Source: an uncultured Methanosarcinales archaeon (GTDB taxonomy: Archaea > Nanobdellota > Nanobdellia > Woesearchaeales > JAGWAF01). Taken from it: a stretch of 42,232 nt of DNA. Below the pieces are notes generated by a model. It worked only from the letters and a program-made list of their open reading frames with translations. It had not been told where the DNA came from and ran no database searches. Numbering within the stretch: position 1 is the first letter of the stretch; the number at the start of each line of letters is the position of its first letter. Below, piece after piece: positions 2,740 through 37,343 of this stretch. The DNA lies in contig CAZGZA010000002.1 of NCBI GenBank assembly GCA_964529655.1, positions 10,705-52,936 on the forward strand, written 5' to 3'. Both the position numbers and the translations under genes were made by a program.

Positions 2740-3288
2740 GTTTACTATCCCATTATTTTTCTTAATAAAAGTTATTATGTTTTCCGCAACCGCAGCCGGG
2801 CTGATTCGTGTTGTATCAATAATTATATCATAATATTTTTTATCATAGGGGTCGAGATTGTAATATTTTTTATATCGCTGCTTTTCCGAGTTTTCCCTTC
2901 TCAGGATATTCTTTTCAGTTTCTTCCTTGCTGATATTCTCCTTTTCATTTGGCCTTAAATCATTAAAGATTCTTCTTGCTGCCTCCTTTAATTCCACATC
3001 AAGAAAAATCTTGATTGAATCGGCTATAAAATGGAAGGCCAGCCTTGAATCAATGATAAAATTGTCCTTTGTTTTGCCAAGCTCTTCGGTTCTTCTGTCG
3101 ATTTCCCTGTCAATTGACGGGTCTTTTTCAGCTTCGCGGCTTAGCTCCAGAAGCGACATTCCACGCTCAGTGGCTAATTCTCTCATCAGCTCGCCCATGG
3201 AATAATGTGCCAGCCCAAGTTGCTTAATAATGATTTTTGCAACAGTGCTCTTTCCTGATCCGGCCCTGCCTGAGATTGTTATTTTCAC
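2710..3288 (-). CDS. cmk: Cytidylate kinase (archaeal type)
   Basis: P-loop MKITISGRAGSGKSTVAK, then HYSMGELMRELATERGMSLLEL and DREIDRR, as in archaeal Cmk. Confidence 0.75.
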   Translation of the reverse strand: MKITISGRAGSGKSTVAKIIIKQLGLAHYSMGELMRELATERGMSLLELSREAEKDPSIDREIDRRTEELGKTKDNFIIDSRLAFHFIADSIKIFLDVELKEAARRIFNDLRPNEKENISKEETEKNILRRENSEKQRYKKYYNLDPYDKKYYDIIIDTTRISPAAVAENIITFIKKNNGIVNRKLLRFIHK

Positions 3289-3759: not shown

Positions 3760-6366
3760 GTGCCTGATAGAAAAATCACTGGCGAAAGGTTTATATTTGT
3801 TTTGCAGCTTCTTAATAGTATGTTGCCGGATAAGGAGCTAAAGGCGCATTACAGACCAATTTTTTGGAAGACTCCGGAAAAATATTATGCCGTACAAATC
3901 CTGAAAGAGGATGGTTTCACAAGGCACATTTGCAAAAAGTGCGGCAAGCCATTTTGGAGTATTGACAGTGCAAGGGAGGCCTGCGGTGATCCCAGCTGCG
4001 CTGAGGATGAAAGTTTTGCTTTTATCGGGAAGAGCCCTGCAAAACATTCGCTCGAATATGTTGAAGTTTGGAAAAAATTCTCCAGAATGTTCAGCGAGTT
4101 TGGCTATAAGCCAATAAAAAGGTATCCTGTTGTTGCACGCTGGAATCCCACTATGGATTATACAAATGCTTCTATTGCGGCATTCCAGCCATATGTTATA
4201 TCAGGTGAAGTTGAGCCGCCCGCCAATCCCCTGATAATTCCCCAGTTCTGCCTGCGATTTGGAGATATTGATAATGTTGGGATAACAGAGTCGCATAACA
4301 CAGGTTTTGTTATGATAGGCCAGCACTCCTTCCAGGAGCCAAAAAACTGGAATCAGAATATGGCCTTTTGGCACATCAAGCAGTGGCTGAACCACGGGCT
4401 TGGATTAGAGGATAAGGAATTAATATTTCACGAAGATGCCTGGGCTGGTGGCGGCAATCTCGGATGCTGCATGGAATTTTATTCAAGAGGATGCGAACTA
4501 GGAAACCAGGTGTATATGTTATATGAACAAACACCCTCGGGTGTAAAAGACCTCAAAATCAAGGTATTGGATATGGGGATGGGCATGGAGAGGAATGCCT
4601 GGTTCTCGCAGGGAAAAAATACTATTTACAATGCAACATTTCCAAAAGTAATCAAAAAATTGCTGGCCGCAACAGGGGTAAAGCAGGATTCGAAACTGCT
4701 TGAAAGGTATATCCCCTACGCTGGGCTGCTTAATCTTGATGAGGTTGAGGATATCAACAAAGCATGGCAGATTGTAGCGGAAAAGGTTGGTATCAGCGCA
4801 GAAGAGCTAAAACAAAAAATACTGCCCCTGAGGTCAGTTTACGCAATAGCCGAACATGCAAGAAGCCTTTTGGTTGTATTAAATGATGGTGCTCTTCCCT
4901 CAAATATTGGTGGAGGCTACAACTTAAGGGTGCTTGCACGCAGGGCCATGTCCTTTATTGAGGATAACCATTGGAATATCTATCTGCCGGATGTATGCAA
5001 ATGGCATGCAGAAGAACTAAAGGGGCTGTTCCCGGAACTCAGCGAGAATCTGGAGAACATCCAAAAAATAATTGAGGTTGAAAAGGAAAAGTTTGAAAGC
5101 ACCAAACAGAAAACAAGGTATATTATCACAAAGGTTGCAAAAGAAAAATTAACTGAAGAAAAACTCCTGCAATACTATGACTCTTATGGCATCACTCCGG
5201 AAATGGTGCAGGAGGAAGCGCTTAAGCATTCTCTCCAGGTTAAGGTTCCTGAAGATTTTTATAATAAGGTTGCAGCACGCCATCTTGACACAAAGCCGAA
5301 GGAAATTGTCCCTGGCATAAAAGAGCTGAAAATTGATACATCCGGCATTCAGCCGACAGAAACATCTTATTATGAAGACTGGAAAAAGAGAGAGTTCAAA
5401 GCTAAAATCACAAAGGTAGAGGGTAATCTTGTTGTTCTTGATGAAACATACTTTTATCCAACATCGGGCGGACAGGACCATGATACTGGAGAGGTTTCCC
5501 TAAATAGTGAAACCGCAAAGGTAATTAATATCTTTAAATATGGCCCGCACATCGTTCATGTCCTTGACAGAACGCTTAAGCTAAAGGCTGGCGACAGTAT
5601 ACAATGCCGGATTGATTTCAGGCGCAGAATGCAACTGACGCAGCATCATACAGCCGCTCATATAATTAATGCAGCAGCCAGAAGGGTTCTAGGCCACCAT
5701 ATTAATCAGGCAGGTGCTAAAAAGAGCGTTGAGAGGGGGCATCTTGATGTTACCCATTATAAGTCAATTTCTGAAGATGAGCTTGCGCAAATCGAAAAAG
5801 AGGCGAATAAAATTATTCAGGATGCTATTGAGGTCAGAAAAATGTCTCTGCCGCGAAGCGAGGCAGAAAAGAGGTATGGGCTGGCTATCTATCAGGGAGG
5901 AGCTGTGCCTGGAAAAATTATTAGGATTGTGGAAATCCCTGAGGTAGACGTGGAAGCATGCGGCGGAACGCATGTGGATAACACAAAAGAGGTTGAGGTA
6001 ATAAATATTTTTAAGAGCATCAAAATTGCGGATGGTGTTGTTAGGCTGTTATATGTTGCAGGCGAGGCGGCAAAACAAACAGCAAAGCACGATCAGGACC
6101 TGCTGAAACAGGCTGCTGAGATTTTAAATGTCAGCCAGTCTGAAGTGCCGGGCCGTGCAGAAGAGCTGTTTGAAGCGTGGAAAAAATTAAGGAAGGATGC
6201 CAAAAGAAAAAAGATTCTTGACAAAACAGTTTATAAACTCTCAAAAAAAGAGGAATATTTTGGCGACAGCCTTGCGAAAACAGCTGAGATACTGAATACA
6301 CAGCCAGAACACATACCTCAAACAATAAAGCGGTTTTTGGCGGATATTGAAGCTTGGTTAAGATGA
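3760..6366 (+). CDS. alaS: Alanine--tRNA ligase (archaeal type)
   Basis: 868 aa. The editing-domain motifs HHTAAHIINAA and CGGTHV are present and the N-terminal catalytic region is of archaeal AlaRS type. The GTG start is uncertain. Confidence 0.95.
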   Translation: MPDRKITGERFIFVLQLLNSMLPDKELKAHYRPIFWKTPEKYYAVQILKEDGFTRHICKKCGKPFWSIDSAREACGDPSCAEDESFAFIGKSPAKHSLEYVEVWKKFSRMFSEFGYKPIKRYPVVARWNPTMDYTNASIAAFQPYVISGEVEPPANPLIIPQFCLRFGDIDNVGITESHNTGFVMIGQHSFQEPKNWNQNMAFWHIKQWLNHGLGLEDKELIFHEDAWAGGGNLGCCMEFYSRGCELGNQVYMLYEQTPSGVKDLKIKVLDMGMGMERNAWFSQGKNTIYNATFPKVIKKLLAATGVKQDSKLLERYIPYAGLLNLDEVEDINKAWQIVAEKVGISAEELKQKILPLRSVYAIAEHARSLLVVLNDGALPSNIGGGYNLRVLARRAMSFIEDNHWNIYLPDVCKWHAEELKGLFPELSENLENIQKIIEVEKEKFESTKQKTRYIITKVAKEKLTEEKLLQYYDSYGITPEMVQEEALKHSLQVKVPEDFYNKVAARHLDTKPKEIVPGIKELKIDTSGIQPTETSYYEDWKKREFKAKITKVEGNLVVLDETYFYPTSGGQDHDTGEVSLNSETAKVINIFKYGPHIVHVLDRTLKLKAGDSIQCRIDFRRRMQLTQHHTAAHIINAAARRVLGHHINQAGAKKSVERGHLDVTHYKSISEDELAQIEKEANKIIQDAIEVRKMSLPRSEAEKRYGLAIYQGGAVPGKIIRIVEIPEVDVEACGGTHVDNTKEVEVINIFKSIKIADGVVRLLYVAGEAAKQTAKHDQDLLKQAAEILNVSQSEVPGRAEELFEAWKKLRKDAKRKKILDKTVYKLSKKEEYFGDSLAKTAEILNTQPEHIPQTIKRFLADIEAWLR

Positions 6367-11497: not shown

Positions 11498-11779
11498 CTG
11501 CCTCCCTACTGTAAAATCCGAGATTTTACAGTCCCTCAAATTTGTTCCAAATTTGAGTTGTCTTGGCTTTGCCAAGATTAAATTTTCTCCCCCTCGCTTG
11601 CGCAGGGGGAGAAAATACCTCAAAATCAGAGATTTTGCGGTACTTCAAATTTAGCCAGAACCCTTTCTTGATTTTGAGGTACTGCAAATTTAGCGAAAAG
11701 CTAAATTTGAAGTATAACCCAACTTTGTTCTGAACAAAGTTGAGCAGGGAGGCAGCAGATGAATAATAACAGCAGCAAA
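11498..11779 (-). repeat. 282-bp multi-hairpin element, copy 1 (perfect inverted copy of 18152-18433)
   Basis: Its reverse complement matches 18152-18433 at both ends on direct comparison. The two track ORFs crossing the copies share an identical 85-residue stretch. Confidence 0.9.
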
Positions 11780-11821
11780 GCATTTTTGCTTCAGAAAGCT
11801 GAACAACTACATTTTAACCTG

Positions 11822-14007: not shown

Positions 14008-14664
14008 ATGGTCTTGTTATGCGGAATTGATGAAGCTGGCCGGGGACCAATCATTGGCCCGATGGTAATGTGCGGCGTAGTTATAGAAGAAAAAGATGAG
14101 CTTAAACTTGCGGCTATAGGAGCAAGAGATTCAAAACTTTTAAGCCCCAAGGCGCGCGAAATAACCTACAAAAAGATTATAGGCATTGTCAAGGATTACA
14201 AGGTTGAAATAATTTCTCCTGAGGAGATAGATGCTGCTTTAAAATCTGCAACCTTAAACCTTAATTGGCTTGAGGCGCATAAAACAGCTGCAATAGTAAA
14301 CTACCTTAATCCTGATAAAGTACTCATGGACTGCCCAAGCCCAAATTGCAGGGCTTACACAAACTATGTTAAACCGCTTATTACAAACAAAAACATCAAG
14401 CTAATAGCAGAGCCGAAAGCTGACGTTAACTACCCGGTTGTTAGCGCTGCCTCAATAATTGCAAAGGTAATCAGAGACCAGCAGATTGAGGAAATTAAAA
14501 AAAGGATTGGCATCGATTTCGGTTCAGGCTATATTGCCGATGAGCGCACGCTTAATTTTGTAAAGGAAAACTATGATGTTTATCCTGAAATTTTTAGAAA
14601 AGAATGGGCGCCGTATAAAAAAGCCATGCAGTCAAAAAAGCAAAAGAGCATTAAGGAGTTTTAA
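14008..14664 (+). CDS. rnhB: Ribonuclease HII
   Basis: GIDEAGRGPIIGPMV plus the DSK and SAASIIAK motifs. Confidence 0.9.
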   Translation: MVLLCGIDEAGRGPIIGPMVMCGVVIEEKDELKLAAIGARDSKLLSPKAREITYKKIIGIVKDYKVEIISPEEIDAALKSATLNLNWLEAHKTAAIVNYLNPDKVLMDCPSPNCRAYTNYVKPLITNKNIKLIAEPKADVNYPVVSAASIIAKVIRDQQIEEIKKRIGIDFGSGYIADERTLNFVKENYDVYPEIFRKEWAPYKKAMQSKKQKSIKEF

Positions 14665-14680
14665 CTGATTTGGACATTTC

Positions 14681-14695
14681 AAAAGGCTTATAAAC
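14681..14695 (+). promoter_or_regulatory. BRE/TATA-like promoter AAAAGGCTTATAAAC for tRNA-iMet
   Basis: It is centred ~28 nt upstream of the tRNA 5' end and is the same word as upstream of 16S. Confidence 0.5.
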
Positions 14696-14718
14696 AACAA
14701 GCAGTTATTTGCGTGCAT

Positions 14719-14793
14719 AGCGAGGTAGGGCAGACAGGAGTGCCCGGGGGGCTCATAACCCCCAGGTCGGTGGTTCAAATCCACCCCTCGCTA
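14719..14793 (+). tRNA. Initiator tRNA-Met (CAT)
   Basis: Hand-folded cloverleaf: acceptor AGCGAGG/CCTCGCT with A1:U72, anticodon arm GGGGG-CTCATAA-CCCCC (a G:C run typical of initiators), T arm GGTGG-TTCAAAT-CCACC. Confidence 0.9.
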
Positions 14794-14933
14794 TTTTTAT
14801 GTTTGTAGTTTGTGGGACTTCATGAAGTGAATGTCCCATTCTTTTTGATCAAACTTTTCGTTAGTTCATGAGCGCGCTCATGAACTAAGCCACGCATGGC
14901 CGTAAAAGTTTGGTGAATATCCACCTCTCGTTA
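14794..14933 (+). repeat. tRNA-iMet trailer cassette ending in a degenerate copy of the tRNA 3' end
   Basis: CCACCTCTCGTTA (14921-14933) matches the tRNA 3' end CCACCCCTCGCTA (14781-14793) at 11/13. It is preceded by AAAAGTTTGGTGAATAT. It contains the module 14814-14860, shared with the tRNA-Pro trailer, and a 28-nt perfect palindrome at 14861-14888. Confidence 0.75.
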
Positions 14934-18137: not shown

Positions 18138-18151
18138 GTGCATAAAGATAA

Positions 18152-18433
18152 TTTGCTGCTGTTATTATTCATCTGCTGCCTCCCTGCTCAACTTTGTTCA
18201 GAACAAAGTTGGGTTATACTTCAAATTTAGCTTTTCGCTAAATTTGCAGTACCTCAAAATCAAGAAAGGGTTCTGGCTAAATTTGAAGTACCGCAAAATC
18301 TCTGATTTTGAGGTATTTTCTCCCCCTGCGCAAGCGAGGGGGAGAAAATTTAATCTTGGCAAAGCCAAGACAACTCAAATTTGGAACAAATTTGAGGGAC
18401 TGTAAAATCTCGGATTTTACAGTAGGGAGGCAG
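18152..18433 (+). repeat. 282-bp multi-hairpin element, copy 2
   Basis: Perfect inverted copy of 11498-11779. The terminal pairing is GCTGCCTCCCT / AGGGAGGCAGC, with about seven internal stem-loops. Confidence 0.9.
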
Positions 18434-18561: not shown

Positions 18562-19326
18562 ATGGACAAATTTAAGGTTGCAGCTGCGCAAATAAACCTC
18601 AATCAAACATTTGCGTTGGTGCTGAAGGATATGCTGAACTATATTGACCGCGCCAAGGCAAAGGGGGTTGATATCATCTGCTTTCCAGAATCCTCACTTT
18701 TAGGAGGTGACACAAAGAACAGATGGGCGCTCGGAAAGCTAAGGCAGAAATGTAAAGAGAAAAAGATATGGGTCATTGTTGCCGGACGCGTTCGGGAAAA
18801 GAAGCATGTTTATAACACTGCTTTTTTAATAAATAATCAGGGAAGAATTCACGGAAAACACAAGAAGGTCCACCTTTCTGAATGCCTGACACCCTCACTA
18901 AGAGCAGGTTCGGCATTTAAAGTCTATGACACGCCTTTCTGCAAAATAGGGCTGGCAATCTGCTGGGATGTTGCATTTCCTAATGCAGTTCAGAGCATGG
19001 TTAAGAAAGGAGCAAAGTTAATATTCTGTCCAATGTATTGGTGCTTTGAGGAATGGGTGCACAGGAAAGAGCCTAAAAAGTTCGAGAAAAAGCTTCTCAG
19101 GGCGCTGGTCCTTACAAGGGCGTTTGAAAATCTTGCTTATACTATTGTCTGCAATGCTTATGACCAGAAAAGGCCTGACCTGACTTCATACTCTGCAATA
19201 GCAGAGCCGCACAAGATAATAAGCGAAATTTTCGAAAAAGAGGGTATGATTACGGCTGAGGTTGACCTTAATTATCTTAAGAAAGTAAGAAAGAAGTATG
19301 CAGAAGATTATAACAAGGTTTTTTAA
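18562..19326 (+). CDS. Carbon-nitrogen hydrolase (nitrilase superfamily)
   Basis: The E-K-C triad context is CFPES, HGKHKKVHL and GLAICWD. Confidence 0.85.
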   Translation: MDKFKVAAAQINLNQTFALVLKDMLNYIDRAKAKGVDIICFPESSLLGGDTKNRWALGKLRQKCKEKKIWVIVAGRVREKKHVYNTAFLINNQGRIHGKHKKVHLSECLTPSLRAGSAFKVYDTPFCKIGLAICWDVAFPNAVQSMVKKGAKLIFCPMYWCFEEWVHRKEPKKFEKKLLRALVLTRAFENLAYTIVCNAYDQKRPDLTSYSAIAEPHKIISEIFEKEGMITAEVDLNYLKKVRKKYAEDYNKVF

Positions 19327-20210
19327 CCTAGCTTCCTGCAAATCCCGTATAAGTAACTAACCAGCAGCCTTGCCAGCCTTGGGGCGTCATGATTGATAAA
19401 AAAGAGGTCTGGACAGCTGTTTGCCTCAATAATATACCACCTGTTCTGGGCGTAGATAAGGTCTAGCCCGCAAACCTCCAGTCCGCAAACCCTTGAAGTC
19501 TGTTCACACAACGCTTTTAGTCTCTTGCCGATTCTTGCCAGCATAAAATGTTCTTTATGGCTGCTGCCGGTTTGTTTCCAGCTTCTCCCGCCAAGTTTGC
19601 CAACAGCCTGTTTTACCTTATAATTAATCAACGTAACTCTATAACTTCTGTGATCACTCGGAATATATTCCTGAGCAAGGACAGGGGAAACCGGATTTCT
19701 CCTTAAAATTTTAGACAATTTTTTGAAAAAGTCTTTTGGCGTCGCGGCCCTCTCAACGCACACTCCGTTATCAGAAAAAACTGCTTTAATAACTAATGGC
19801 TGCTTCTTAAGAAGGTTCCTGATAAAAGGATTGTTTGATTTTAAATCACGCGGGATAAAATAGGTTCTCGGAGTGGGAATTCCATTCTCAATGCACTTAA
19901 GATAGAACATCCATTTATCCTCCTGATAATAAAAGGAATGCGTCGGAGAGACAACCCTCTTGCCAAGCTCTTCAAGGGTTTTGGAAAGCTCAACAGACTC
20001 CTGTAATTCAGGGCCGGCGGCGGCATAATTAAGAATAACCTTGCAGGATTTTACCTTTTTTTTAAAGGATATTGGGTCAAGCTGCTCCTCTACTGGCAGG
20101 AGAACTACATCCAGCCTTCTGCCAAGCGTGGAGATAAGAAGTTTGTCTATGTTATCAACTGACTCTTTGTAATAGATATAGCCGATAGAATATCTCTTTT
20201 GTTTCATCAA
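19323..20210 (-). CDS. ATP-grasp family ligase (RimK-like)
   Basis: The size, the central lysine-containing region LVIKAV and the C-terminal LDLIY..WYIIEANSCPDL are typical of ATP-grasp folds. Confidence 0.55.
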   Translation of the reverse strand: MMKQKRYSIGYIYYKESVDNIDKLLISTLGRRLDVVLLPVEEQLDPISFKKKVKSCKVILNYAAAGPELQESVELSKTLEELGKRVVSPTHSFYYQEDKWMFYLKCIENGIPTPRTYFIPRDLKSNNPFIRNLLKKQPLVIKAVFSDNGVCVERAATPKDFFKKLSKILRRNPVSPVLAQEYIPSDHRSYRVTLINYKVKQAVGKLGGRSWKQTGSSHKEHFMLARIGKRLKALCEQTSRVCGLEVCGLDLIYAQNRWYIIEANSCPDLFFINHDAPRLARLLVSYLYGICRKLG

Positions 20211-20245
20211 AGATTAATAAGGCAAAAAGGGTATTTATATTTTGG

Positions 20246-20278
20246 GATTTTAGTCCAAAAAAATGCGCTGGCCGGGAT
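20246..20278 (-). repeat. Duplicate of the tRNA-Gly(TCC) 3' end plus its trailer
   Basis: GATTTTAGTCCAAAAAAATGCGCTGGCCGGGAT (20246-20278) matches 20333-20364 with a 1-nt indel. A CCAGATTTTT..AAAAATCTGG hairpin lies between the two copies. Confidence 0.85.
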
Positions 20279-20349
20279 ACCCACCAGATTTTTAAAAAAA
20301 TCTGGTAAAAACATTGGACATAAAATCTTTGAGATTTTAGTCCAAAAAA

Positions 20350-20420
20350 TGCGCTGGCCGGGATTCGAACCCGGATAATCAGCTTGGAAGGCTGAAGTCA
20401 TGCCATTAGACCACCAGCGC
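20350..20420 (-). tRNA. tRNA-Gly (TCC)
   Basis: Hand fold: GCGCTGG..CCAGCGC acceptor, anticodon arm TCAGC-CTTCCAA-GCTGA, T arm CCGGG-TTCGAAT-CCCGG. Confidence 0.9.
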
Positions 20421-20606
20421 ATTTGTTATGATAGCAGAAGACATAAAAAAATATACAATTAGCAGGTCTTCTGCTATTAGCCAAAGGCATACTAATTGTA
20501 TAAACAATTATGTCTTTGGCTATAAAATGGCGGGTTGTATTATAAAGTTTTTGCTCTTTTTAAAAAGCAAATCTTTAAATTTCTCTTGCGCTTTGTCTCT
20601 TAATAC

Positions 20607-20680
20607 GGGGCTGTGGTCTAGCTTGGTATGATACACGCATGGGGTGCGTGTGATCGGGAGTTCAAATCTCCCCAGCCTCA
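20607..20680 (+). tRNA. tRNA-Pro (GGG)
   Basis: Acceptor GGGGCTG/CAGCCTC, anticodon arm ACGCA-TGGGGTG-TGCGT, T arm GGGAG-TTCAAAT-CTCCC. Confidence 0.85.
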
Positions 20681-20929
20681 TTTGGAATTAAAGCTGTAGC
20701 GCAGGTTTAATTCCAGCTTTTTACCAGATTTTTACCGAAAAATCTGGTGGTAATCTCCCCAGCCCCAGTTATTTGTTTGTAGTGGGTAATTCTTGGGACT
20801 TCACGAAGTGAATGTCCCATTCTTTTTGATCAAACTTTTCGCCAAAACACTCAAAAATCCATTAAGATTTTTGGTGTCCTAAAAATTCCCGGAATTTTTA
20901 TGAGTTTGGTGAATATCTCCCCAGCCTCA
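20681..20929 (+). repeat. Two tandem tRNA-Pro trailer cassettes, each ending in a copy of the tRNA 3' end
   Basis: ATCTCCCCAGCCCCA (20753-20767, 1 mismatch) and ATCTCCCCAGCCTCA (20915-20929, exact) both match the tRNA at 20666-20680. Confidence 0.85.
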
Positions 20930-21802: not shown

Positions 21803-22450
21803 ATGCCTAACACAATTCTTGTTATTTGCGCGCATAACGATGATGGGATTATTGGCGCCGGTGGCACGCTCGCGAGATACGCAGAGGAGGGCAAAAGGAT
21901 TAGGACAATTGTTTTCTCTTACGGTGAACTAATCAAGTTTCATCTCCAAAAAGAGCTTGCAATAAAAATGCGGGTTAAGGAAGCGCTTGATTGTGACAGG
22001 ATTCTTGGAGGCAAGGGTATACTTCATCTGGGCATTAGCGAAAACAATTTTGACGAAGAAATTAAAAAAAGACATATCAAGGAAAAGCTTGCTGGCATTA
22101 TCAAAAAAGAGAATCCGGAAAAGATATTCACACATTCGGTCAATGATCCGCATCGTGACCATAAAGCAGTTTACCGGCTTGTAAAGGAAATGAAGAGCGA
22201 ACATTTAATGAAATGCGAGGTTTACTCTTTTGAGATATGGAATATTATTAACCTGTTTGAGAGGGATCAGCCAAAGCTTATTGTTGATATTACCTCTACT
22301 TTCAGAAAAAAAAGCAGGGGGATTATGGCACATAAAAGCCAAAACCTGCTGATTGTTAAGCCATTTCTTATCAAGGCCTTCTTCAAGGATTTAATAAATG
22401 GCTTCAATAATAGCTGCTGGTTTGCTGAGGTATTTAACAAATTCCAATGA
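21803..22450 (+). CDS. PIG-L family deacetylase (LmbE-like)
   Basis: VICAHNDDGIIGAGGT and HSVNDPHRDH. Confidence 0.85.
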   Translation: MPNTILVICAHNDDGIIGAGGTLARYAEEGKRIRTIVFSYGELIKFHLQKELAIKMRVKEALDCDRILGGKGILHLGISENNFDEEIKKRHIKEKLAGIIKKENPEKIFTHSVNDPHRDHKAVYRLVKEMKSEHLMKCEVYSFEIWNIINLFERDQPKLIVDITSTFRKKSRGIMAHKSQNLLIVKPFLIKAFFKDLINGFNNSCWFAEVFNKFQ

Positions 22451-23526
22451 AGATTGCGATTGTTTCAGACAGGTATTATCCAAGTATGGACGGAATTGTG
22501 AGGTTTCTGGAGGCTGTTATTCCCGGGCTGGAAAAGAGGATGGAGCTGCAGCTCTTAGTCCCGGGCTATAGCAAGAGCCAAAAAAGTATCTCAGCTAAGA
22601 CAACAGTTGTTCCAGCGTTTAAAGCTGAATTTCTTGGCCTGCCATATATGGTTATTCCTAAGAAGATTAAATACTTAAAGGAGGCAATTAAAAACAGCGA
22701 TAAGGTCTGGGTTCAGACAATGGGACTTTTTGGAATGGCAGCATTTTATTATGCTAGAAAATACAAAAAGCCTGTTTATGTTTTTGTCCATAGTATAGAA
22801 TGGGAGCTGTTGTTGCATTCTCTAAAGGCGCCGAGGATTGTTAAGCTAATTCTCGCCAGGATTATAAAATGTGTAATTTTGCATTTTTACAAAAAGGCAG
22901 AGCTGCTGATGGTGCCATCAAAAGATATGCAGCATTTGTTTCCGACAATGAAAACAGGGGTTATACCTCTAGGGGTTGACCGCAATATATTCCGGCCTTT
23001 AGCCGGAAAAAGCCATGGCTTTACAGTAGGGTATTGCGGCAGGCTTTCAGAAGACAAGAATCTTATGGTTCTTAAGCAGGCCTTTAAGATGCTGCATGAA
23101 AAAGTGCCGAACAGCAGCCTTTTGCTGGTTGGTGATGGCCCGCTTAAGGAAAAGCTTAAAGGCATTGGAATTACAATTACAGGTTTTGTTTATGATGTTG
23201 TTGGATATCTAAATAAGATGGATGTTTTTGTTTTGCCCTCACTTACAGAAACAACATCACTGGCAACGCTTGAGGCCATGGTATGCGGGCTTCCTGTGAT
23301 TGTTACTAAATCCTCACCTGTCCTGCGCAGGATAATTCAGGATGGCAAAAATGGCTTTTTCTTCCATAAGCTTAATGCAAATGAGCTTGAGGAGCGACTG
23401 ATGCTGTTGTACAGCAAACCAAAGCTAAGAAAATCAATGGGTAGACTAAACCAAAAGATTATAGCAAAAAGGTTTAGCTGGAGCACTGCGATTGAGAGGA
23501 TTGCGGGAATTCTGAACAAGATTTAA
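22447..23526 (+). CDS. Glycosyltransferase family 4 (GT-B fold)
   Basis: The C-terminal EX7E-type region is PSLTETTSLATLEAMVCGLPVI. It overlaps the PIG-L stop by 4 nt. Confidence 0.85.
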   Translation: MKIAIVSDRYYPSMDGIVRFLEAVIPGLEKRMELQLLVPGYSKSQKSISAKTTVVPAFKAEFLGLPYMVIPKKIKYLKEAIKNSDKVWVQTMGLFGMAAFYYARKYKKPVYVFVHSIEWELLLHSLKAPRIVKLILARIIKCVILHFYKKAELLMVPSKDMQHLFPTMKTGVIPLGVDRNIFRPLAGKSHGFTVGYCGRLSEDKNLMVLKQAFKMLHEKVPNSSLLLVGDGPLKEKLKGIGITITGFVYDVVGYLNKMDVFVLPSLTETTSLATLEAMVCGLPVIVTKSSPVLRRIIQDGKNGFFFHKLNANELEERLMLLYSKPKLRKSMGRLNQKIIAKRFSWSTAIERIAGILNKI

Positions 23527-24545
23527 ATACTAGCATTAGAGGGAGTTGACAAGAATAACGCAGACTTGCTGATTAATGCTATAATAGTAAGCAAGTCTGC
23601 GGAATGTACAAGAATGACAAACAATCCATTAATAAATATTGATAAAATCAAGAGCAGGATTTATACTATTAGAAGCCTACAAGTAATGCTCGATGCAGAT
23701 CTTGCAGAGCTTTATAATGTAGAGACAAAAACATTAAATCAAGCAGTTAAAAGAAACAGTGAAAGATTTCCAAAAGAGTTTATGTTTCAAATAGCTCAAG
23801 AAGAGTTTGATAATTTGAAGTCACAATTTGTGGCCTCAGGTGCAAAAGATTTAAGGTCACAAAATGTTACCTTAAAAAACAGAAGAGGGCATCACCGGAA
23901 GTATCTTCCATATGTTTTTACAGAGCAGGGAGTTGCAATGCTTTCAGGAGTCTTAAAAAGCAACACTGCGGTAAAGATAAGCATACAAATAATGAGCGCA
24001 TTTGTCGCAATGAGGCAGTTTATCTATTCAAATGCCCAAATATTTTATAGGTTAAATGTTGTAGAAAAAAAGCAAATAGAATATGACAATAAATTTGATG
24101 AAATATTCGATGCCATACAAAGCAAAGATATAGTCCCTGAGAAAGGAATATTTTTTGATGGGCAGATATTTGATTCATACCAATTTGTTTCTGGCTTAAT
24201 TAGAAGCGCTAATAAGTCCATTATCCTTATTGATAATTATATAGATGATTCTGTATTGACTCTATTCAGCAAGAGAAATAAAAATGTGCAAGCCACTATA
24301 TTCACTAAAGAGATTTCCAAGCAATTAGCTCTTGATTTAACCAAATACAATTCACAATACCCATCAATCGAAGTAAAAGAGTTTAAACAGTCGCATGATA
24401 GGTTTCTTATAATAGATAATAAGGATGTTTACCATTTTGGGGCATCATTAAAAGATTTAGGCAAAAAGTGGTTTGCATTCTCAAAATTTGACAGGGAAGC
24501 AGTTAAGCTGCTGGATAAGCTGGGGTTGAAATGAAAGAGGGGTAT
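23527..24545 (+). mobile_element. Candidate inserted cassette carrying an ORF6N-domain gene, bounded by duplicated glycosyltransferase 3' ends
   Basis: It is flanked by the direct repeats 23411-23526 and 24546-24658. No integrase or transposase is present. Confidence 0.45.
23614..24534 (+). CDS. ORF6N (KilA-N-like) DNA-binding domain protein with a C-terminal PLD-like degenerate HKD region
   Basis: IRSLQVMLDADLAELYNVETKTLNQAVKRNSERFPKEFMFQ is the ORF6N signature. The C-terminal HDRFLIIDNKDVYHFGASLKDLG resembles an HxK-x4-D...GS motif with K replaced. I placed the start at MTNNPL. Confidence 0.7.
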   Translation: MTNNPLINIDKIKSRIYTIRSLQVMLDADLAELYNVETKTLNQAVKRNSERFPKEFMFQIAQEEFDNLKSQFVASGAKDLRSQNVTLKNRRGHHRKYLPYVFTEQGVAMLSGVLKSNTAVKISIQIMSAFVAMRQFIYSNAQIFYRLNVVEKKQIEYDNKFDEIFDAIQSKDIVPEKGIFFDGQIFDSYQFVSGLIRSANKSIILIDNYIDDSVLTLFSKRNKNVQATIFTKEISKQLALDLTKYNSQYPSIEVKEFKQSHDRFLIIDNKDVYHFGASLKDLGKKWFAFSKFDREAVKLLDKLGLK

Positions 24546-24658
24546 ACAGCAAACCCAAGCTAAGAAAATCAATGGCTAGCTTAAACCAAAGGATTATAGC
24601 AAAAAGGTTCGGCTGGAGCACTGCGATTGATAGTATTGAGAGAATTCTGAAAGATTAG
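24546..24658 (+). pseudogene. Detached duplicate of the glycosyltransferase C-terminal coding end
   Basis: It translates in frame to YSKPKLRKSMASLNQRIIAKRFGWSTAIDSIERILKD*, compared with YSKPKLRKSMGRLNQKIIAKRFSWSTAIERIAGILNKI* at 23411-23526. Confidence 0.7.
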
Positions 24659-28152: not shown

Positions 28153-28199
28153 TTCCCCCGTATGTTAATGGGCAGATTGCTTTTATAAAATTATTGTTG

Positions 28200-28281
28200 T
28201 TTTATAGTAACAGACGTTAATTTTTATGTATAATCTACTGTTACTATATTCGGCAGGCATAATCTATTTGTATAATTACTT
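28200..28281 (-). promoter_or_regulatory. 82-nt conserved element upstream of smc (paralog of 1809-1890)
   Basis: The inverted repeat is TATAGTAACAGAC..CTGTTACTATA at 28203-28248. A TATA-like TTTTATAAAA lies between it and the smc ATG. Confidence 0.55.
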
Positions 28282-31295: not shown

Positions 31296-31439
31296 TGGGC
31301 CCATCCAGATACCTACCAGATTTTTTAGAAAATGCACAAAAATCTAAAATATTTTTGGCATCCTGGAAATCCGCAGATTTCCATGAATCTGGTAAAAATA
31401 TGCGACATAAAATCCTTCTGGGATTTTAGTCGCAAAAAC
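31296..31439 (-). repeat. tRNA-Val trailer cassette ending in a copy of the tRNA 3' end
   Basis: TGGGCCCATCCAGAT (31296-31310) matches TGGGCCCAACCGGAT (31440-31454) at 13/15. The hairpin GACATAAAATCC..GGATTTTAGTC is at 31404-31431. Confidence 0.75.
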
Positions 31440-31511
31440 TGGGCCCAACCGGATTTGAACCGGTGACCTTCGCCTTGTAAGGGCGACGTTCTGCCGCTGA
31501 ACTATGAGCCC
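31440..31511 (-). tRNA. tRNA-Val (TAC)
   Basis: Sense GGGCTCA..TGGGCCC acceptor, anticodon arm TCGCC-CTTACAA-GGCGA, T arm ACCGG-TTCAAAT-CCGGT. Confidence 0.9.
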
Positions 31512-31546
31512 AATGAAGTTTTAACGTGCTTGATTCTCCCAAAAAA

Positions 31547-31704
31547 TCTGGGCCCACGGGGATTTTCACAAGATTTTTACCAAAGCACAAAAATCCCAGA
31601 GGATTTTTGGCTCCCAAAAAACTTTTGGTTTTTTGTGGAAATCTTGTAAAAAGTGGGCGACATAAAATCCCTTCAGGATTTTAGTCCCTCTAAACTTTGA
31701 AATC
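31547..31704 (-). repeat. tRNA-Ile trailer cassette ending in a copy of the tRNA 3' end
   Basis: TCTGGGCCCACGGGGATTT at 31547-31565 is identical (19/19) to 31703-31721. The hairpin is at 31659-31686. Confidence 0.85.
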
Positions 31705-31824
31705 TGGGCCCACGGGGATTTGAACCCCAGACCTTCGGCTTTCCTAGCGCCGAAAGCGGCCGTATAAGACCGACGCTCTAACTGCCCGAAAGTTTTAGCT
31801 TCCTCCAGGCTGAGCTATGGGCCC
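31705..31824 (-). tRNA. tRNA-Ile (TAT) with two introns (D-loop and canonical 37/38)
   Basis: Removing 31782-31804 (23 nt) and 31741-31762 (22 nt) gives a 75-nt cloverleaf, GGGCCCATAGCTCAGCCTGGTTAGAGCGTCGGTCTTATAAGCCGAAGGTCTGGGGTTCAAATCCCCGTGGGCCCA. The anticodon loop is CTTATAA. Confidence 0.7.
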
Positions 31825-31868
31825 GATTGTTATACCTAAATTGTTTATACTTTTTAAATATTGTTAAG

Positions 31869-31977
31869 TGCAACAGCCGGGATTTTCACCAAACTTTTTT
31901 TGACAAAAGGTTTGATCAAAAGCAGCGACATAAAATCCCTACAGGATTTTAGTCGCAAACACGACCAACACATTCTA
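31869..31977 (-). repeat. tRNA-Gly(GCC) trailer cassette ending in a copy of the tRNA 3' end
   Basis: TGCAACAGCCGGGATTT (31869-31885) matches TGCGACAGCCGGGATTT (31978-31994) at 16/17. The hairpin is at 31927-31954. Confidence 0.8.
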
Positions 31978-32048
31978 TGCGACAGCCGGGATTTGAACCC
32001 GGGTTCCCACCGTGGCAGGGTGGAGTCCTACCACTAGACTACTGTCGC
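31978..32048 (-). tRNA. tRNA-Gly (GCC)
   Basis: Sense GCGACAG..CTGTCGC acceptor, anticodon arm CCACC-CTGCCAC-GGTGG, T arm CCGGG-TTCAAAT-CCCGG. Confidence 0.9.
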
Positions 32049-32053
32049 ATATA

Positions 32054-32156
32054 TGCCCCTGACGGGACTTTCAGATTTCAGTCAAACTGAAAACTTTTGA
32101 ACCCATGTCACTGCCTCGAAAGGGCAGTATGATTGACCGGACTACACCACAGGGGC
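32054..32156 (-). tRNA. tRNA-Glu (TTC) with an intron in the T-loop
   Basis: Sense GCCCCTG..CAGGGGC acceptor, anticodon arm CTGCC-CTTTCGA-GGCAG. The T stem ATGGG/CCCGT is interrupted by ~26-28 extra nt (about 32070-32097) inside the TTCAAA..GT loop. Confidence 0.75.
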
Positions 32157-32203
32157 GTTAGTTAGCATCAGAGATTGTCTCTATTTAAAAAACTTGCTTA
32201 CTG

Positions 32204-32343
32204 AACTTTTGCATTTTTAGTTTATTGTATCCTGCAAAAGTTAAGTTCGTAAACTGTCAAGAATCCGGGATTCTTGAGCATGCTCATAAAAGCTTTGCTT
32301 TTATAACATTTTGCCTATTTTAGCTAAAACGCAAAAGTTTACG
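32204..32343. repeat. Pair of AACTTTTGC..GCAAAAGTT hairpins, the second split by a 54-nt insertion
   Basis: AACTTTTGCA (32204-32213) pairs with TGCAAAAGTT (32233-32242). CGTAAAC (32248-32254) + [32255-32308] + TTTTGC..GCAAAAGTTTACG (to 32343) is the same 13-nt arm as at 2697-2739. Confidence 0.55.
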
Positions 32344-32438
32344 CTTAAAAGTTTTCTGATTGAAAAATCGTGCTGGACTTCAGAAAAAATGCCGAAAAAG
32401 CATAATATTTATATAATTCAAATGTGGTTGTAATAGTA

Positions 32439-32648
32439 ATGCCGAACAAGGTTATAATAACAGTTTCAATGGTTGTTTTGCTTACTATTATGGTTGTTAT
32501 TGCCATTATGGGGACACAGGCTCCAACAGCGGCGGTAACATACACAATCGGGCCAGAAGAGGCAGAAGCAATAAAGCTGTGCGAAGAGGCAGGCAAAACA
32601 CCCTGGATTTCTAGCGAAAACAGTCAAACATCTATACAGTGTGAATAA
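32439..32648 (+). CDS. Hypothetical small membrane/secreted protein
   Basis: MPNKVIITVSMVVLLTIMVVIAIMG is a TM or signal anchor, followed by a short soluble tail with 2 Cys. Confidence 0.3.
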   Translation: MPNKVIITVSMVVLLTIMVVIAIMGTQAPTAAVTYTIGPEEAEAIKLCEEAGKTPWISSENSQTSIQCE

Positions 32649-32720
32649 ACCGTAAACTTTTATCTATATATTCCTAATAACCAACATCCTTTTAAATCTG
32701 TAGCTAATCAACTTGGTATT

Positions 32721-33512
32721 ATGAACCCTCTTATTCATGTGCAGCTAAATCTGGAATTATTTAGGAAGTTAAGGCTTGAGCTGGACCGTGATTTATTTAT
32801 TGTAGGCAGTGTGCTTCCGGACATATATTTTGGAGGATCAATTTCAGAGAATGAGTCGCACTACCAATCAAAAAGGTTTTTGAGCTACCTGTTGAAGAAC
32901 GACCCCAACTATGCTTCTATGGGTGTGGGATTCATGTTCCATGGGGAGGAACCGAATGGGCTTGATTTTTATGCGCATAAAAAGAATGGATTTATTGAAA
33001 AAAAGCTGCAGCATGTTAAACCACTTGTATTGGCTGAACACCCAAAGATTCGTGAAGCAGACCTTACAAAGATAGGCCATTCGCTGATTGAATTTGCCTG
33101 CGACTACCTTAGCGATGAGGATGCCGCCAGTGCGCTGAACTTTGCATTTAAGAGGACTGATTTGAAGAGAATTGCTTTCCATCTTACGGCTTTTTTCGGG
33201 GCTCACCAGCATAAAACTTATAAGATGCTGAAGTTTTTCAGCAAGTTCAATTTCCAGAAATTGAGAACAAAAAAAGGTGTTTCATCAAGCGTTAAGAGGT
33301 TTCTGCTCTGGAATGATGTTGGTGCAGTTACAATGCTGCAAAAGTATCGGCATCTTAAGACACAGCTTTATTTTATGCGAAAGAAAGGTGTTGAAATGGT
33401 TTTTAATGAAGTTAAAAATGCAGTCCAGCCTGATTTGGATAAGTTTCTGAAATCAGCAAAAAAAGAGATGGCAAAGAACCTGCCTAAACACCTGCCTCCT
33501 GAATTAGTTTAG
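32721..33512 (+). CDS. Hypothetical protein
   Basis: 263-aa ORF with no confidently recognised family. The N-terminal H..GSVLPD weakly recalls metal-dependent hydrolases. Confidence 0.4.
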   Translation: MNPLIHVQLNLELFRKLRLELDRDLFIVGSVLPDIYFGGSISENESHYQSKRFLSYLLKNDPNYASMGVGFMFHGEEPNGLDFYAHKKNGFIEKKLQHVKPLVLAEHPKIREADLTKIGHSLIEFACDYLSDEDAASALNFAFKRTDLKRIAFHLTAFFGAHQHKTYKMLKFFSKFNFQKLRTKKGVSSSVKRFLLWNDVGAVTMLQKYRHLKTQLYFMRKKGVEMVFNEVKNAVQPDLDKFLKSAKKEMAKNLPKHLPPELV

Positions 33513-34266
33513 CCCCAAGCTTAACAGTTAAATTGTTTATATCCTTTTTGGGGTTTATCTCAACAATGTCAATCCATTTAAGGTTTTTAAGCAGCTTTAG
33601 CTTCTGCAGGAGGGTAATCAGTTCTCTGGAGGAAATGCCCCCAACTTCGCAATAACCCGTGCCTGGAGCAAATGCCGGGTCAACAACATCAATATCAATA
33701 GAAAGGTAGACTGCATCAAATTTCTGCAGGCGCTCCATAACATGCAATATTAATTCTGGATCAGCATGCAACTGTTTTATTTGGCAAGCCATGATTTTTT
33801 GTTTGCGCATGAACATTAACTCCTCTTTATCAACCGCGCGGATCCCCGCTAAAATGACATTTTCAGGTTTGATAGTTCCATCCTCCATCAGCATTCGCAG
33901 GTAGTTATCATGCGTTGCAGGGTTAAAGCCTGGCATTAAGTCAGGATGCGCATCAAAAATGATAATGCCAGGGTTTTTTGCCTTGGAGCAGAAGGCCTTT
34001 GCCAAAGAATAGGTTATTGAATGGTCGCCTCCAATAAAAATAGTATGGCTTAAATCGAGCGCTTTGGCCTGCTCAAAAATAAGGTTGTGGTTTTGTTCAA
34101 GATTTGTATTGTCAACCTCAAACTCTTTGATGTTAAAATTTTGCAAAAAACTGTTTTCATTAAGCAGGGCATTGGATAATTCCTTTGTTATTTCTTCCGG
34201 AGCTGTCTCGCACCCGATATTTTTTCCAAGGTTTCCTCCAGAAAAACTGATTTGTATGATATTCAT
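33484..34266 (-). CDS. speB: Agmatinase / ureohydrolase family protein
   Basis: GGDHSITY, FDAHPDL and SIDIDVVDPAFAPGTG are the Mn-binding motifs of the arginase family. Confidence 0.85.
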   Translation of the reverse strand: MNIIQISFSGGNLGKNIGCETAPEEITKELSNALLNENSFLQNFNIKEFEVDNTNLEQNHNLIFEQAKALDLSHTIFIGGDHSITYSLAKAFCSKAKNPGIIIFDAHPDLMPGFNPATHDNYLRMLMEDGTIKPENVILAGIRAVDKEELMFMRKQKIMACQIKQLHADPELILHVMERLQKFDAVYLSIDIDVVDPAFAPGTGYCEVGGISSRELITLLQKLKLLKNLKWIDIVEINPKKDINNLTVKLGAKLIQEAGV

Positions 34267-34459
34267 ATTAAGTGTCTAGAATTGGAGTATAGCAAGCTCC
34301 TCAACAGTTCTGGCTTTCAGCGAGCATTCCTTTTTGCCCTCCCAGTAAACCCAGCAGTCTTTTTTGTGCTTTTCCCATCTCAGGCAGTCTTTGCATATCT
34401 CATTCATTGCACAGAAGGTAGAGCTGATGATTTAAATAGTTTACGGCGATTTTTTGCTG

Positions 34460-36040: not shown

Positions 36041-36444
36041 AGGTCTTCATCATCAGGAATTCCATCATGGTCTTCATCTGCAAAGTTATTGGTTCCTGGC
36101 GAAAAAGGCAGCGCTAAATTAAAGCCAGCTTCAAGATTGTCCTCTGCTATAATATGATTAGTTTGAAAATATCTTTTTGAGCCTTGGGCAACATAAACCT
36201 CAAATTGTGAAAATGCCGGGGCTGATATGTAACAGCTAAACTCTCCGCTTGAAATAGCGCATTCTGTAACTGAGCCGCTGGCGCGTATTAAAAATAGAAC
36301 ACTGCCACTTTCTACATTAGTGCTATCTGAATAATTAACAGTTCCATAAACCATATTTCTGTACCATGGTGCGGTTTCATTTTGTGCAATTGCAACAGGA
36401 ATGGACAAAAGCATGAAAGCAATTAAACAGGCAAAGAATTTCAT
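35974..36444 (-). CDS. Secreted protein with a thrombospondin type 3-like calcium-binding repeat
   Basis: The signal peptide is MKFFACLIAFMLLSIPVAIAQ. The C-terminal DEDHDGIPDDEDLCQQGAVSQEEVDRYGC fits DxDxDGxxDxxDxC..VDxxGC. Its start forms an ATGA overlap with the upstream gene. Confidence 0.55.
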   Translation of the reverse strand: MKFFACLIAFMLLSIPVAIAQNETAPWYRNMVYGTVNYSDSTNVESGSVLFLIRASGSVTECAISSGEFSCYISAPAFSQFEVYVAQGSKRYFQTNHIIAEDNLEAGFNLALPFSPGTNNFADEDHDGIPDDEDLCQQGAVSQEEVDRYGCTCPQK

Positions 36445-37268
36445 CCTACACACTCTCCAACAACATCAACATTCTTCAGCCCTATCCTGAATTCAAACGG
36501 CGGGTAAGATTTCTCGTATAGTGGCTGGACATCAACAACTCGGATTGCATGAAGCTTGAGGAATTTTCCAGGCAATAAGTACACATTAACAAACTCATTC
36601 CCGTATTCCAGGCAATGCAGGGAGATATCATAGGGCTGGTTGTCTTTTACAGCTCTTAAAAGCTTATAAACAACATCATAAATATGCCCTAATCTTATTG
36701 GAATATCAGCCATAACCTTTGGTGCAGTATATTCCTGACTGTTTCTTAAAAGTTTAAGAGGGTAATCTGCAGTTATAATAATAGAGTTGGTCCCAAGTTC
36801 AGTTAAAATAGACGGGCTTAGCGGTTTTACAACCTTAAAGCCCTCTTTTTCAAAATCCTCGGATTTTATGCACTGGCCTAATTCAAAGAGGACAAAATTG
36901 TTGATTCTGTTTTTTATGTCTTTTTTTGAAGATAGGGAAACATTTTTTTTATCAAGGCCGTATGGAAAGCTGCTTTGGCCGTAAAAATAAAGCTGCCAGT
37001 CAGGAAGCCCATCCTCTTTGTATCTGTCATCTCCAGCCGGTGCGATATAACCACCATGCTTACCGATAGCATAGACCGCTCTTATGCCGGCATCTGCAAG
37101 GCAGCTTTGCAGGTAGTTTTGCAGTTTAAGGTTAGTGCCCTCAGAAGGCAATGGCAGGAATGTTTCCTGGCTCTCACGGGATGAGAGGTATATAATTATG
37201 GAAGCCGCTAAAATAAGGATTACCGCTATTATCATTACTAAAGTAAGTTGGGCATTTTTATCAGGCAT
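36441..37268 (-). CDS. Hypothetical membrane-anchored protein, possible class III (pilin-like) signal
   Basis: MPDKNAQLTLVMIIAVILILAASIIIYL at the N-terminus. The track ORF extends to 37310. Confidence 0.45.
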   Translation of the reverse strand: MPDKNAQLTLVMIIAVILILAASIIIYLSSRESQETFLPLPSEGTNLKLQNYLQSCLADAGIRAVYAIGKHGGYIAPAGDDRYKEDGLPDWQLYFYGQSSFPYGLDKKNVSLSSKKDIKNRINNFVLFELGQCIKSEDFEKEGFKVVKPLSPSILTELGTNSIIITADYPLKLLRNSQEYTAPKVMADIPIRLGHIYDVVYKLLRAVKDNQPYDISLHCLEYGNEFVNVYLLPGKFLKLHAIRVVDVQPLYEKSYPPFEFRIGLKNVDVVGECVG

Positions 37269-37325
37269 GACGAATATATACTTCAAAAGAAGATTTAAAT
37301 GTTTCGGCAAGGGGCTTTTGAGCCG

Positions 37326-37343
37326 GGAAAAGTTTATATAAAC
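37326..37343 (+). promoter_or_regulatory. BRE/TATA-like promoter GGAAAAGTTTATATAAAC
   Basis: It lies ~25 nt upstream of the PGI/PMI ATG, consistent with a near-leaderless transcript. Confidence 0.45.

Follow-up and report, generated by a model that had tools for sequence, protein, structure and literature searches.

The 140-nucleotide (nt) stretch that follows the initiator tRNA gene (positions 14794-14933 of the window, i.e. the whole 42,232-nt piece of archaeal DNA analysed here) may well belong to a family of small insertion cassettes, non-coding and non-autonomous, for which the T-loop of tRNA genes is the target in archaea of the Woesearchaeota type. Each of the six tRNA genes in the window (initiator Met, Pro-GGG, Gly-UCC, Gly-GCC, Val-UAC and an intron-containing tRNA) possesses such a cassette, tRNA-Pro exhibiting two in tandem. 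The cassettes are 71-147 nt long, devoid of genes, and start directly after the discriminator base. They present the same order of parts: a spacer, a bulged hairpin (H1), a run of four to seven T residues, a second hairpin (H2), the motif GGTGRNW made up of the end of H2 and four further bases, and AT followed by the cognate tRNA end. This last element is a 15-nt copy comprising the AT, the 3' T-stem strand, the 3' acceptor strand and the discriminator base of that very tRNA. A partial tRNA duplicate beside inserted DNA is already known; the present case is better described as a T-loop-associated hairpin cassette family with cognate 15-nt repeats.

tRNA genes are the classic landing sites of mobile DNA, and how archaea came by their many oddly placed introns and split tRNA genes is an open question. 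The window belongs to a lineage with a gene-less cassette at one fixed T-loop position in every tRNA gene examined, the end of the gene being regenerated each time. If mobile, these cassettes provide a system for addressing universal T-loop targeting, the survival of essential single-copy tRNA genes, and the renewal of trailers, terminators and introns. In addition, stranded 15-nt ends and multi-intron tRNAs confuse tRNA annotation in DPANN genomes. Full-text literature searches returned no paper on such cassettes in DPANN archaea.

The initiator tRNA cassette and its family

The tRNA encoded at 14718-14793 (forward strand) is called Met-CAT; its A1:U72 pair and its G/C-rich anticodon stem mark it as an archaeal initiator. 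Its last 15 nt (14779-14793, ATCCACCCCTCGCTA) form the repeated unit. The ensuing cassette, on the same strand, begins with a left spacer, TTTTTATGTTTGTAGTTTGT (14794-14813), whose TAGTTTGTGGGA part is identical in the tRNA-Pro cassette of the related locus L017. The spacer is followed by H1 of type A (14814-14837), which reads GGGAC-TTCA-loop-TGAA-T-GTCCC with a bulged T, and by the T-run ATTCTTTTTG (14838-14847), a probable stop for the archaeal RNA polymerase. H2 covers 14848-14914, with arms ATCAAACTTTT (14848-14858) and AAAAGTTTGGT (14904-14914), and its loop contains a perfect 28-nt palindrome, TTAGTTCATGAGCGCGCTCATGAACTAA (14861-14888). GAAT (14915-14918) is the remainder of the T-loop-like right end GGTGAAT(AT). 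Lastly, the pseudo-3' end ATCCACCTCTCGTTA (14919-14933) matches the true end at 13/15 positions, both changes being C to T, and this score was equalled by 1 of 5000 shuffles. A preliminary description of this DNA had reported the palindrome and the decayed end, counting 11/13 for the latter, which is the same match minus its leading AT. Written out, the proximal 3' end is CCTCGCUA / CCUCGCUA and the distal copy UCUCGUUA.

That description had also pointed to a 47-nt module shared with the tRNA-Pro trailer. Indeed, 14814-14860 equals 20795-20841 bar one mismatch, with no match in 100 shuffles, but the similarity reaches further left, over 56 nt at 93% (14805-14860 versus 20786-20841). Likewise, the cassette does form a discrete unit, its left edge lying at 14794, directly after the discriminator base, rather than at 14814. 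The closing sequence AGTTTGGTGAATAT is common to the initiator (14907-14920) and tRNA-Pro (20903-20916) cassettes, and the proposed pairing of CAAACTTTT with AAAAGTTTG turns out to be the hairpin base, kept in all eight cassettes compared. What the earlier description had missed is the generality of the architecture, which recurs at every tRNA of the window with other hairpin types.

H1 of type A occurs at the initiator tRNA and in the second tRNA-Pro cassette, type B (GACTAAAATC...GATTTTATGTC) at four tRNAs, and a third type in the first tRNA-Pro cassette. The base of H2 exists as ATCAAAC/GTTTGGT, ACCAGAT/ATCTGGT and ACAAGAT/ATCTTGT, while its loop ranges from a couple of nt to ~75 nt, often with extra palindromes. 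The 7-bp H2 base is paired in 56/56 cells over eight cassettes, with four of its seven pairs changed on both sides and one alternating between U.G and C-G. A compensatory change is also found in the outer pair of H1(A), GGGAC/GTCCC in the window becoming GGGAT/ATCCC in L017. A hairpin core of the form AAAATC-N3-9-GATTTT was counted 12 times in the window, where 0.23 occurrences would be expected (~50-fold enrichment), the sites being in cassettes, in H2 loops and in a 290-nt hairpin-array repeat.

On the forward strand, tRNA-Pro(GGG) (20607-20680, repeat unit 20666-20680) is followed by its first cassette at 20681-20767, which has the third hairpin type, H2 arms ACCAGAT/ATCTGGT and a pseudo end at 20753-20767 (14/15). 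The second one, at 20768-20929, contains module A (20795-20841) and a pseudo end at 20915-20929 that is identical at 15/15 positions, or 18/18 with the following TTT. The four hairpin-B cassettes lie on the reverse strand. At 20264-20421, tRNA-Gly(UCC) (20350-20421) is accompanied by a cassette at 20279-20349 and a pseudo end at 20264-20278 (15/15), identity continuing into 20241-20263. tRNA-Gly(GCC) (31978-32049; whole locus 31869-32049) has its cassette at 31884-31977 and a pseudo end at 31869-31883 (14/15). The intron-containing tRNA (31705-31824, probably Ile-UAU; locus 31549-31824) has a cassette at 31564-31704 and a pseudo end at 31549-31563 (15/15), and tRNA-Val(UAC) (31440-31512; locus 31296-31512) a cassette at 31311-31439 and a pseudo end at 31296-31310 (13/15). 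The intron-containing gene was missed by default ARAGORN and placed at 31705-31824 by Rfam. With introns allowed it is called Arg-TCG, the orthologue in locus L018 being called Ile-TAT, and a reading of the anticodon loop suggests Ile-UAU; it also presents an extra ~22-nt D-loop insertion, of which the L018 orthologue is devoid.

A cognate 15-nt repeat was found at 7/7 tRNAs tested (the six of the window and tRNA-Pro of L017), 72-235 nt downstream and with 0-2 mismatches. Each was reached by at most 1 of 5000 shuffles, and the tails of non-cognate tRNAs gave 3-7 mismatches. With up to two mismatches of 14 allowed, a cognate repeat follows 6/6 window tRNAs, 3/22 tRNAs of other Woesearchaeota loci (some of them duplicate contigs) and 1/45 tRNAs of unrelated viral loci. 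Counted as distinct tRNAs, the other Woesearchaeota loci yield ~3/16, two of them within two mismatches of 14 and the initiator tRNA of L141 at three. The lone viral case, at 3038-3110 of the viral contig L023, repeats 14 nt of its 3' end without mismatch 37 nt downstream, which may be a genuine attachment-site duplicate.

The junction is constant. All repeats begin at the AT of the T-loop, after a GGTGRNW-like sequence, and GGT and AT are common to 7-8 of the eight cassette right ends. Identity passes the tRNA end into the local flank in several cases, namely by TTTTTAG (L017), GATTT (intron-containing tRNA) and 23 nt (Gly-UCC). Where the copies differ (initiator, Val, Gly-GCC), it is the distal copy that carries the mismatches. 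The pseudo ends decay (initiator 2/15, Val 2/15, L141 initiator 3/13) while H2 is intact, and 5/6 of the pseudo-end substitutions still permit pairing with the 5' strand.

Empty sites, related loci and protein genes

That the cassette had moved or been copied, as first proposed, is supported by the relatives. The orthologous initiator tRNA genes of L003 (RNase HII 75% identical) and L006 (61%) have no cassette. In L018 (CDC48 81% identical; 5' part of 16S rRNA 86%), the Glu, Gly-GCC and Ile-type tRNAs are spaced by 17 nt and 1 nt, with no cassettes between them, and the last tRNA of the operon is followed by a hairpin-B-like stem, a T-run and GATTGAACTTTT, which is half of H2, without a repeat. 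In L017 (RimK-like protein 74% identical), tRNA-Gly-UCC has two introns and no cassette; one of these introns (gene at ~5560-5760, reverse strand) is 27 nt long and lies exactly between the T-loop and the 3' T-stem strand (position 60/61), and ARAGORN misses this gene. The tRNA-Pro of L017, in contrast, has a diverged, minimal module-A cassette whose H2 loop is reduced to CCT; on either side of this cassette lies a perfect 24-nt repeat made up of the tRNA-Pro end of this locus and TTTTTAG. The two module copies of the window differ at 1/47 positions, against a divergence of 13-16% from L017. The pseudo end in each of the two lineages equals the tRNA-Pro end of that lineage, and these ends differ at 4/15 positions; independent insertions or a continued homogenisation are therefore needed. 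In the sequences searched, which did not include the source genome beyond the window, module A was found beside tRNA genes only (twice in the window, once in L017), rather than mostly away from them as a generic dispersed repeat, and exact-pattern scans of viral and metagenome collections reported no match to it.

A more distant pair of loci, L141/L142 (RNase HII 59% identical), shows the initiator tRNA followed by ATCAAATCTTT-TGC-AAAGATTTGGT-GGTA-AT and a decayed copy of the initiator end (10/13); the L141 initiator cassette is of the H2 type, with TTTGGTGGTAAT. The tRNA-Gly-UCC of L141 is accompanied by a different, single hairpin and a 13/15 copy of its own end. A T6 terminator follows the distal copy, as expected if this copy is the original end of the gene. 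Two other loci with close RNase HII relatives, L009 and L010, are contigs that stop before the tRNA.

Hairpin B also occurs at protein genes. In L002, it stands after the stop codon of a gene, presumably encoding a TGS-domain GTPase judging from the C-terminal residues, and is followed by a second copy of the last 60 nt of the gene. In L013, it stands after another open reading frame (ORF) and is followed by a 27-nt second copy. The 21 bases specified in the hairpin-B search pattern are identical in Woesearchaeota loci whose 16S rRNA differs by 23% over the compared part, the exact-match search having itself selected for identity. The exact pattern reported nothing in viral contigs; a relaxed pattern gave at least 120 viral matches, none with a real hairpin or context, while a loose regular expression for the right-end motif was too unspecific. 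The hairpin matches in L001, L011 and L014 are probably due to chance.

The loci L012 and L015 present another arrangement: a hairpin-B cassette (H1, T-run and H2) lies in antisense within an intron between the T-stem and T-loop (53/54) of a multi-intron tRNA-Tyr (L012 130-400; L015 180-540, reverse strand). This gene was parsed by hand, being called neither by ARAGORN nor by Rfam. In L015, its three insertions are located at the canonical position, at the T-stem/T-loop boundary, where the complete antisense cassette resides, and inside the T-loop.

In the window itself, a gene encoding a glycosyltransferase of family GT4 (locus 22447-24658) has its last 107 nt (23410-23516) repeated at 24545-24651 with 90% identity. 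The repeats enclose a 1-kb insert with a 322-residue ORF6N-domain gene (23566-24534), of which the N-terminal DNA-binding domain alone was recognised in Pfam, PHROGs and Protein Data Bank sequences. The distal copy overlaps the end of the convergent SMC gene; in relatives, the GT4 gene directly abuts SMC, or the block is absent. The GT4 case follows the same logic as the tRNA cassettes, the distal copy standing beside SMC as the GT4 gene does in relatives. A diversity-generating retroelement was rejected, the differences between copies at GT4, L002 and L013 involving all bases instead of being adenine-specific.

A possible insertion mechanism and its alternatives

In the favoured scenario, a cassette would enter a tRNA gene at the T-loop. 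An intact set of the last 15 nt (T-loop 59-60, 3' T-stem strand, 3' acceptor strand and discriminator) would end up upstream of it, so that the tRNA gene stays functional, while the displaced original 3' end would be left downstream and slowly decay. H1 and the T-run, directly behind the tRNA, would probably constitute a new transcription stop. A scan for bacterial-type terminators did not flag them, because the T-run begins 3-4 nt past the bulged stem; archaeal transcription termination depends on T-runs, and this dependence is what the proposed terminator role is drawn from. H2 is followed by the T-loop-like right end TTTGGTGRNW-AT, which is probably what a putative enzyme recognises, and the H2 loop may be a hotspot for further small palindromes. 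The initiator copy would be a recent derivative of the module-A cassette that the same genome has at tRNA-Pro. Recent and repeated insertion is favoured by the fixed junction, by a right-end motif conserved between distant lineages, by cassettes in tandem, by empty orthologous sites and by the 1/47 difference. The repeat could arise in two ways. Identity into the local flank and a modal length of 15 nt speak for an in-situ duplication by a staggered cut, and the synonymous differences at the protein genes for an element that carries the repeat in.

Several observations weigh against insertion of a mobile cassette. The two ends of a cassette do not form an inverted repeat, and no recombinase or transposase was detected with Pfam in the 42-kb window or beside any cassette (real-looking ORFs of the window and ORFs around L002 and L013). 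The repeat length is 15 nt in five of the eight cassettes but apparently 20-38 nt in three, and the antisense cassette in the tRNA-Tyr intron of L012/L015 has no flanking repeat. At the protein genes of L002 and L013, the repeats measure 27-60 nt, and 8/10 changed codons keep the amino acid or the stop, the stop changes including TAG to TAA and TAG to TGA (P ~0.0004-0.012 depending on the null model). Such mostly silent changes suggest that the two copies have each evolved as a functional gene end, in different lineages, and they are easier to reconcile with an imported functional allele than with a duplication made in situ. The module-A core of the window is 84-87% identical to that of L017, about the value of the tRNA-Pro gene (85%), two intergenic controls being at 43% and 61%; conservation equal to that of tRNA-Pro could indicate a host function instead of mobility. 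Finally, the evidence comes from three cassette-bearing lineages, and the hairpin-B matches were recovered with exact-match patterns, which biases their recovery.

It is unlikely that the cassettes are remnants of full-size integrative elements, i.e. plasmids or viruses with a tyrosine-type integrase, whose left and right attachment sites (attL/attR) would be the 15-nt copies and whose bulk would have been deleted, leaving the terminator hairpin proximal to one attachment site and the other end. Partial tRNA duplicates are the standard footprint of such elements in archaea (PMC9897764; PMC3293823). The variable H2 loop looks like a site of lost cargo, the 1-kb insert with its ORF6N-domain gene sits between two copies of the GT4 3' end, and mostly synonymous differences such as those of L002 and L013 are what an element-borne allele would show. 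However, the same 70-150-nt architecture would have to result from eight deletions independent of each other, and one module occurs at two tRNAs with cognate repeats, yet an integrase element has one attachment site of its own (attP). Moreover, identity goes past the tRNA into the local flank, no integrase lies near any copy, and no viral or plasmid sequence matches the modules: blastn of the initiator cassette against plasmids reported nothing, and that of the Ile-Val cassette region against phages matched the tRNA part only. The conservation of the module-A core, unpaired bases included, speaks for a host-functional tRNA trailer that is not mobile, in which H1, the T-run and H2 would act in termination, 3' processing or as a small RNA, and the pseudo end would be kept by pairing with the 5' acceptor strand or by mimicry of the tRNA end. 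The compensatory changes in H1 and H2 agree with such a role, as do the U.G pair alternating with C-G, which fits RNA pairing of the sense strand, the pseudo-end substitutions that mostly keep pairing with the 5' strand, and the L018 operon with its H1, T-run and half H2 devoid of a repeat. We nonetheless consider a host trailer improbable. The cassette is missing at the orthologous tRNAs of close relatives and is thus not required; the pseudo ends decay while H2 does not; the T-runs precede H2, which may therefore not be transcribed with the tRNA; and the hairpin types are interchangeable between tRNAs. Regarding RNA families, Rfam 15 reports only tRNA and rRNA at gathering score and nothing credible for the cassettes at E-values up to 5.

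Break repair with template switching would dispense with a dedicated enzyme: a trailer cassette would be copied from another tRNA locus, with a return via the GGT..AT microhomology and re-copying of at least the last 15 nt. The resemblance of every cassette right end to the universal T-loop speaks for it, together with the varying repeat lengths that include local flank, the many loopless perfect palindromes typical of DNA-level snap-back, and a genome rearranged relative to its relatives at repeat-rich sites. It is plausible for single events and less so for a sequence-conserved family, and as a general account it seems quite unlikely. It would need eight or more events with one and the same junction, the right-end motif has kept its sequence in a lineage with no more than 59% identity in RNase HII, and the identity of hairpin B across such distant 16S rRNAs points to protein recognition or horizontal spread. 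As for a T-loop intron or alternative 3' exon, with the distal copy joined by the archaeal splicing endonuclease, introns do exist in the T-arm of Woesearchaeota tRNAs (Gly-UCC of L017 and Tyr of L012/L015, the latter with the antisense cassette), and in minimum-energy folds the 5' acceptor strand pairs with the distal copy, which is expected anyway because both copies are alike. This reading was judged very improbable: a complete tRNA precedes every cassette, runs of T5-T7 lie inside the supposed intron, the distal copies of the initiator, Val and Gly-GCC tRNAs have decayed, and no bulge-helix-bulge could be drawn at the junctions by inspection, no dedicated motif search having been run.

Within the favoured T-loop insertion scenario, a bolder version is possible if doubtful, namely a new integration system in DPANN archaea that would recognise the universal T-loop and insert terminator-hairpin cassettes with a ruler-like 15-nt duplication exactly regenerating the tRNA 3' end. 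Its logic would be like that of casposase or CRISPR leader-repeat integration but without terminal inverted repeats, and antisense insertions would become T-arm introns. If so, the cassettes would be a directly observable origin of non-canonical tRNA introns in archaea and of disrupted tRNA genes.

Known systems and other features of the window

Archaeal integrated elements are flanked by partial tRNA duplicates, with an intact gene on one side, a fragment on the other, and the insert absent in relatives (PMC9897764). A direct repeat of the tRNA 3' part likewise brackets the insert at all seven tRNAs tested here. The inserts differ in being gene-free hairpins of 71-147 nt, with no integrase inside or beside them in the Pfam-scanned ORFs. 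Furthermore, they are not of one type per attachment site, module A being found at initiator Met and Pro and hairpin B at Gly-UCC, Gly-GCC, Ile and Val, and the repeat is 15 nt from a fixed T-loop position, with all tRNAs of the window affected.

The closest mechanistic parallel is the casposon. Casposons of Aciduliprofundum boonei integrate beside a tRNA gene, at its T-psi-C-loop region, and duplicate 15 bp of the target, occasionally 16 or 22 bp; the duplicated segment overlaps the tRNA by 5 bp only (PMC5137440). The cassettes share a ~15-nt duplication beside the T-psi-C region (15 nt in 5/8), and their tandem insertion at one site recalls a leader-repeat-spacer array. In the cassettes, by contrast, it is the final 15 nt of the tRNA that are duplicated. 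Terminal inverted repeats are a requirement for casposons, which also encode Cas1 and PolB, whereas the cassettes have neither such repeats nor such genes nearby: their left ends (TTTTTATGTTTGTAG...) are unrelated to the reverse-complemented right ends (ATTCACCAAACTTTT...), the inverted repeat of H2 being internal, and no Cas1-type casposase was found in the window. Since terminal inverted repeats and casposase were not seen, membership of the casposons is not claimed, and the casposon reading was rejected along with that of miniature inverted-repeat transposable elements (MITEs).

MITEs, repetitive extragenic palindromes (REP), bacterial interspersed mosaic elements (BIME) and palindrome-associated transposable elements are, like the cassettes, short non-coding and imperfect bulged palindromes that proliferate in one genome, often after genes. 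Unlike the cassettes, they do not duplicate at least 15 nt of the end of a target gene, and in contrast with a MITE, the H2 arms of the cassettes are internal and not flanked by the duplication. Neither a RAYT/TnpA gene nor terminal inverted repeats nor a short target duplication of fixed length was seen for the cassettes. REP and IS200-IS605-derived elements have subterminal imperfect hairpins, insert beside a fixed tetranucleotide and cause no target duplication. The cassettes contain bulged hairpins, with GTAG lying ahead of H1(A) and, in L002, L012 and L013, TAG immediately preceding H1(B); however, the sequences of H1 and H2 differ and a duplication is present. Another comparison concerns the transposition of bulge-helix-bulge introns among tRNA genes of Thermoproteales, reportedly described by Fujishima et al. 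in 2010. These are also small structured elements at different tRNA genes and positions in one lineage, and the L012/L015 cassette resides in a T-arm intron. The window cassettes differ in being located outside the mature tRNA, with T-runs and a duplicated exon end, and are not spliced; a mature tRNA is interrupted only by the antisense cassette of the L012/L015 tRNA-Tyr.

The window is otherwise an archaeal housekeeping stretch encoding FtsZ, alanyl-tRNA synthetase, Nre, RsmB, RNase HII, adenylosuccinate synthetase, CDC48, SMC and others, and ends in the 5' part of an archaeal 16S rRNA gene. The named best relatives of its proteins belong to Candidatus Woesearchaeota or Nanoarchaeota. The hairpin-array repeat mentioned above is a 290-nt element present as two inverted copies (11498-11787 and 18144-18433) that are 99% identical. 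It folds into about seven hairpins in series closed by a long-range stem (z = -11.5) and returned no Pfam or Rfam match. The 6.3-kb segment between the two copies, which holds the initiator tRNA locus, is inverted relative to L017, where RsmB adjoins a CN-hydrolase gene.

A second block, from the tRNA cluster to an SMC-like gene (31296-40417), is inverted relative to L018 12359-19346, the L018 tRNA operon lying just upstream of the 16S rRNA gene. Short repeats (2636-2666, 32187-32217 and 40668-40698) and inverted arms (32204-32255 / 40718-40769) are found near or within this block. In L018, a G+C-rich direct repeat of ~110 nt (~18907-19015 and 19444-19560) flanks the Glu-Gly-Ile tRNA operon. 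A 98-nt intergenic direct repeat with 85% identity (1793-1890 and 28184-28281) lies upstream of the FKBP-type and CDC48 genes. Finally, the motif AAAAGG(C/T)TTATAAACAAC is shared upstream of the initiator tRNA (14658-14698) and 16S rRNA (41593-41633) genes and is probably the strong stable-RNA promoter (B recognition element/TATA box) of this organism; a similar AAAAAGTATAAACAA is found after the Gly-GCC pseudo end, before the next tRNA.

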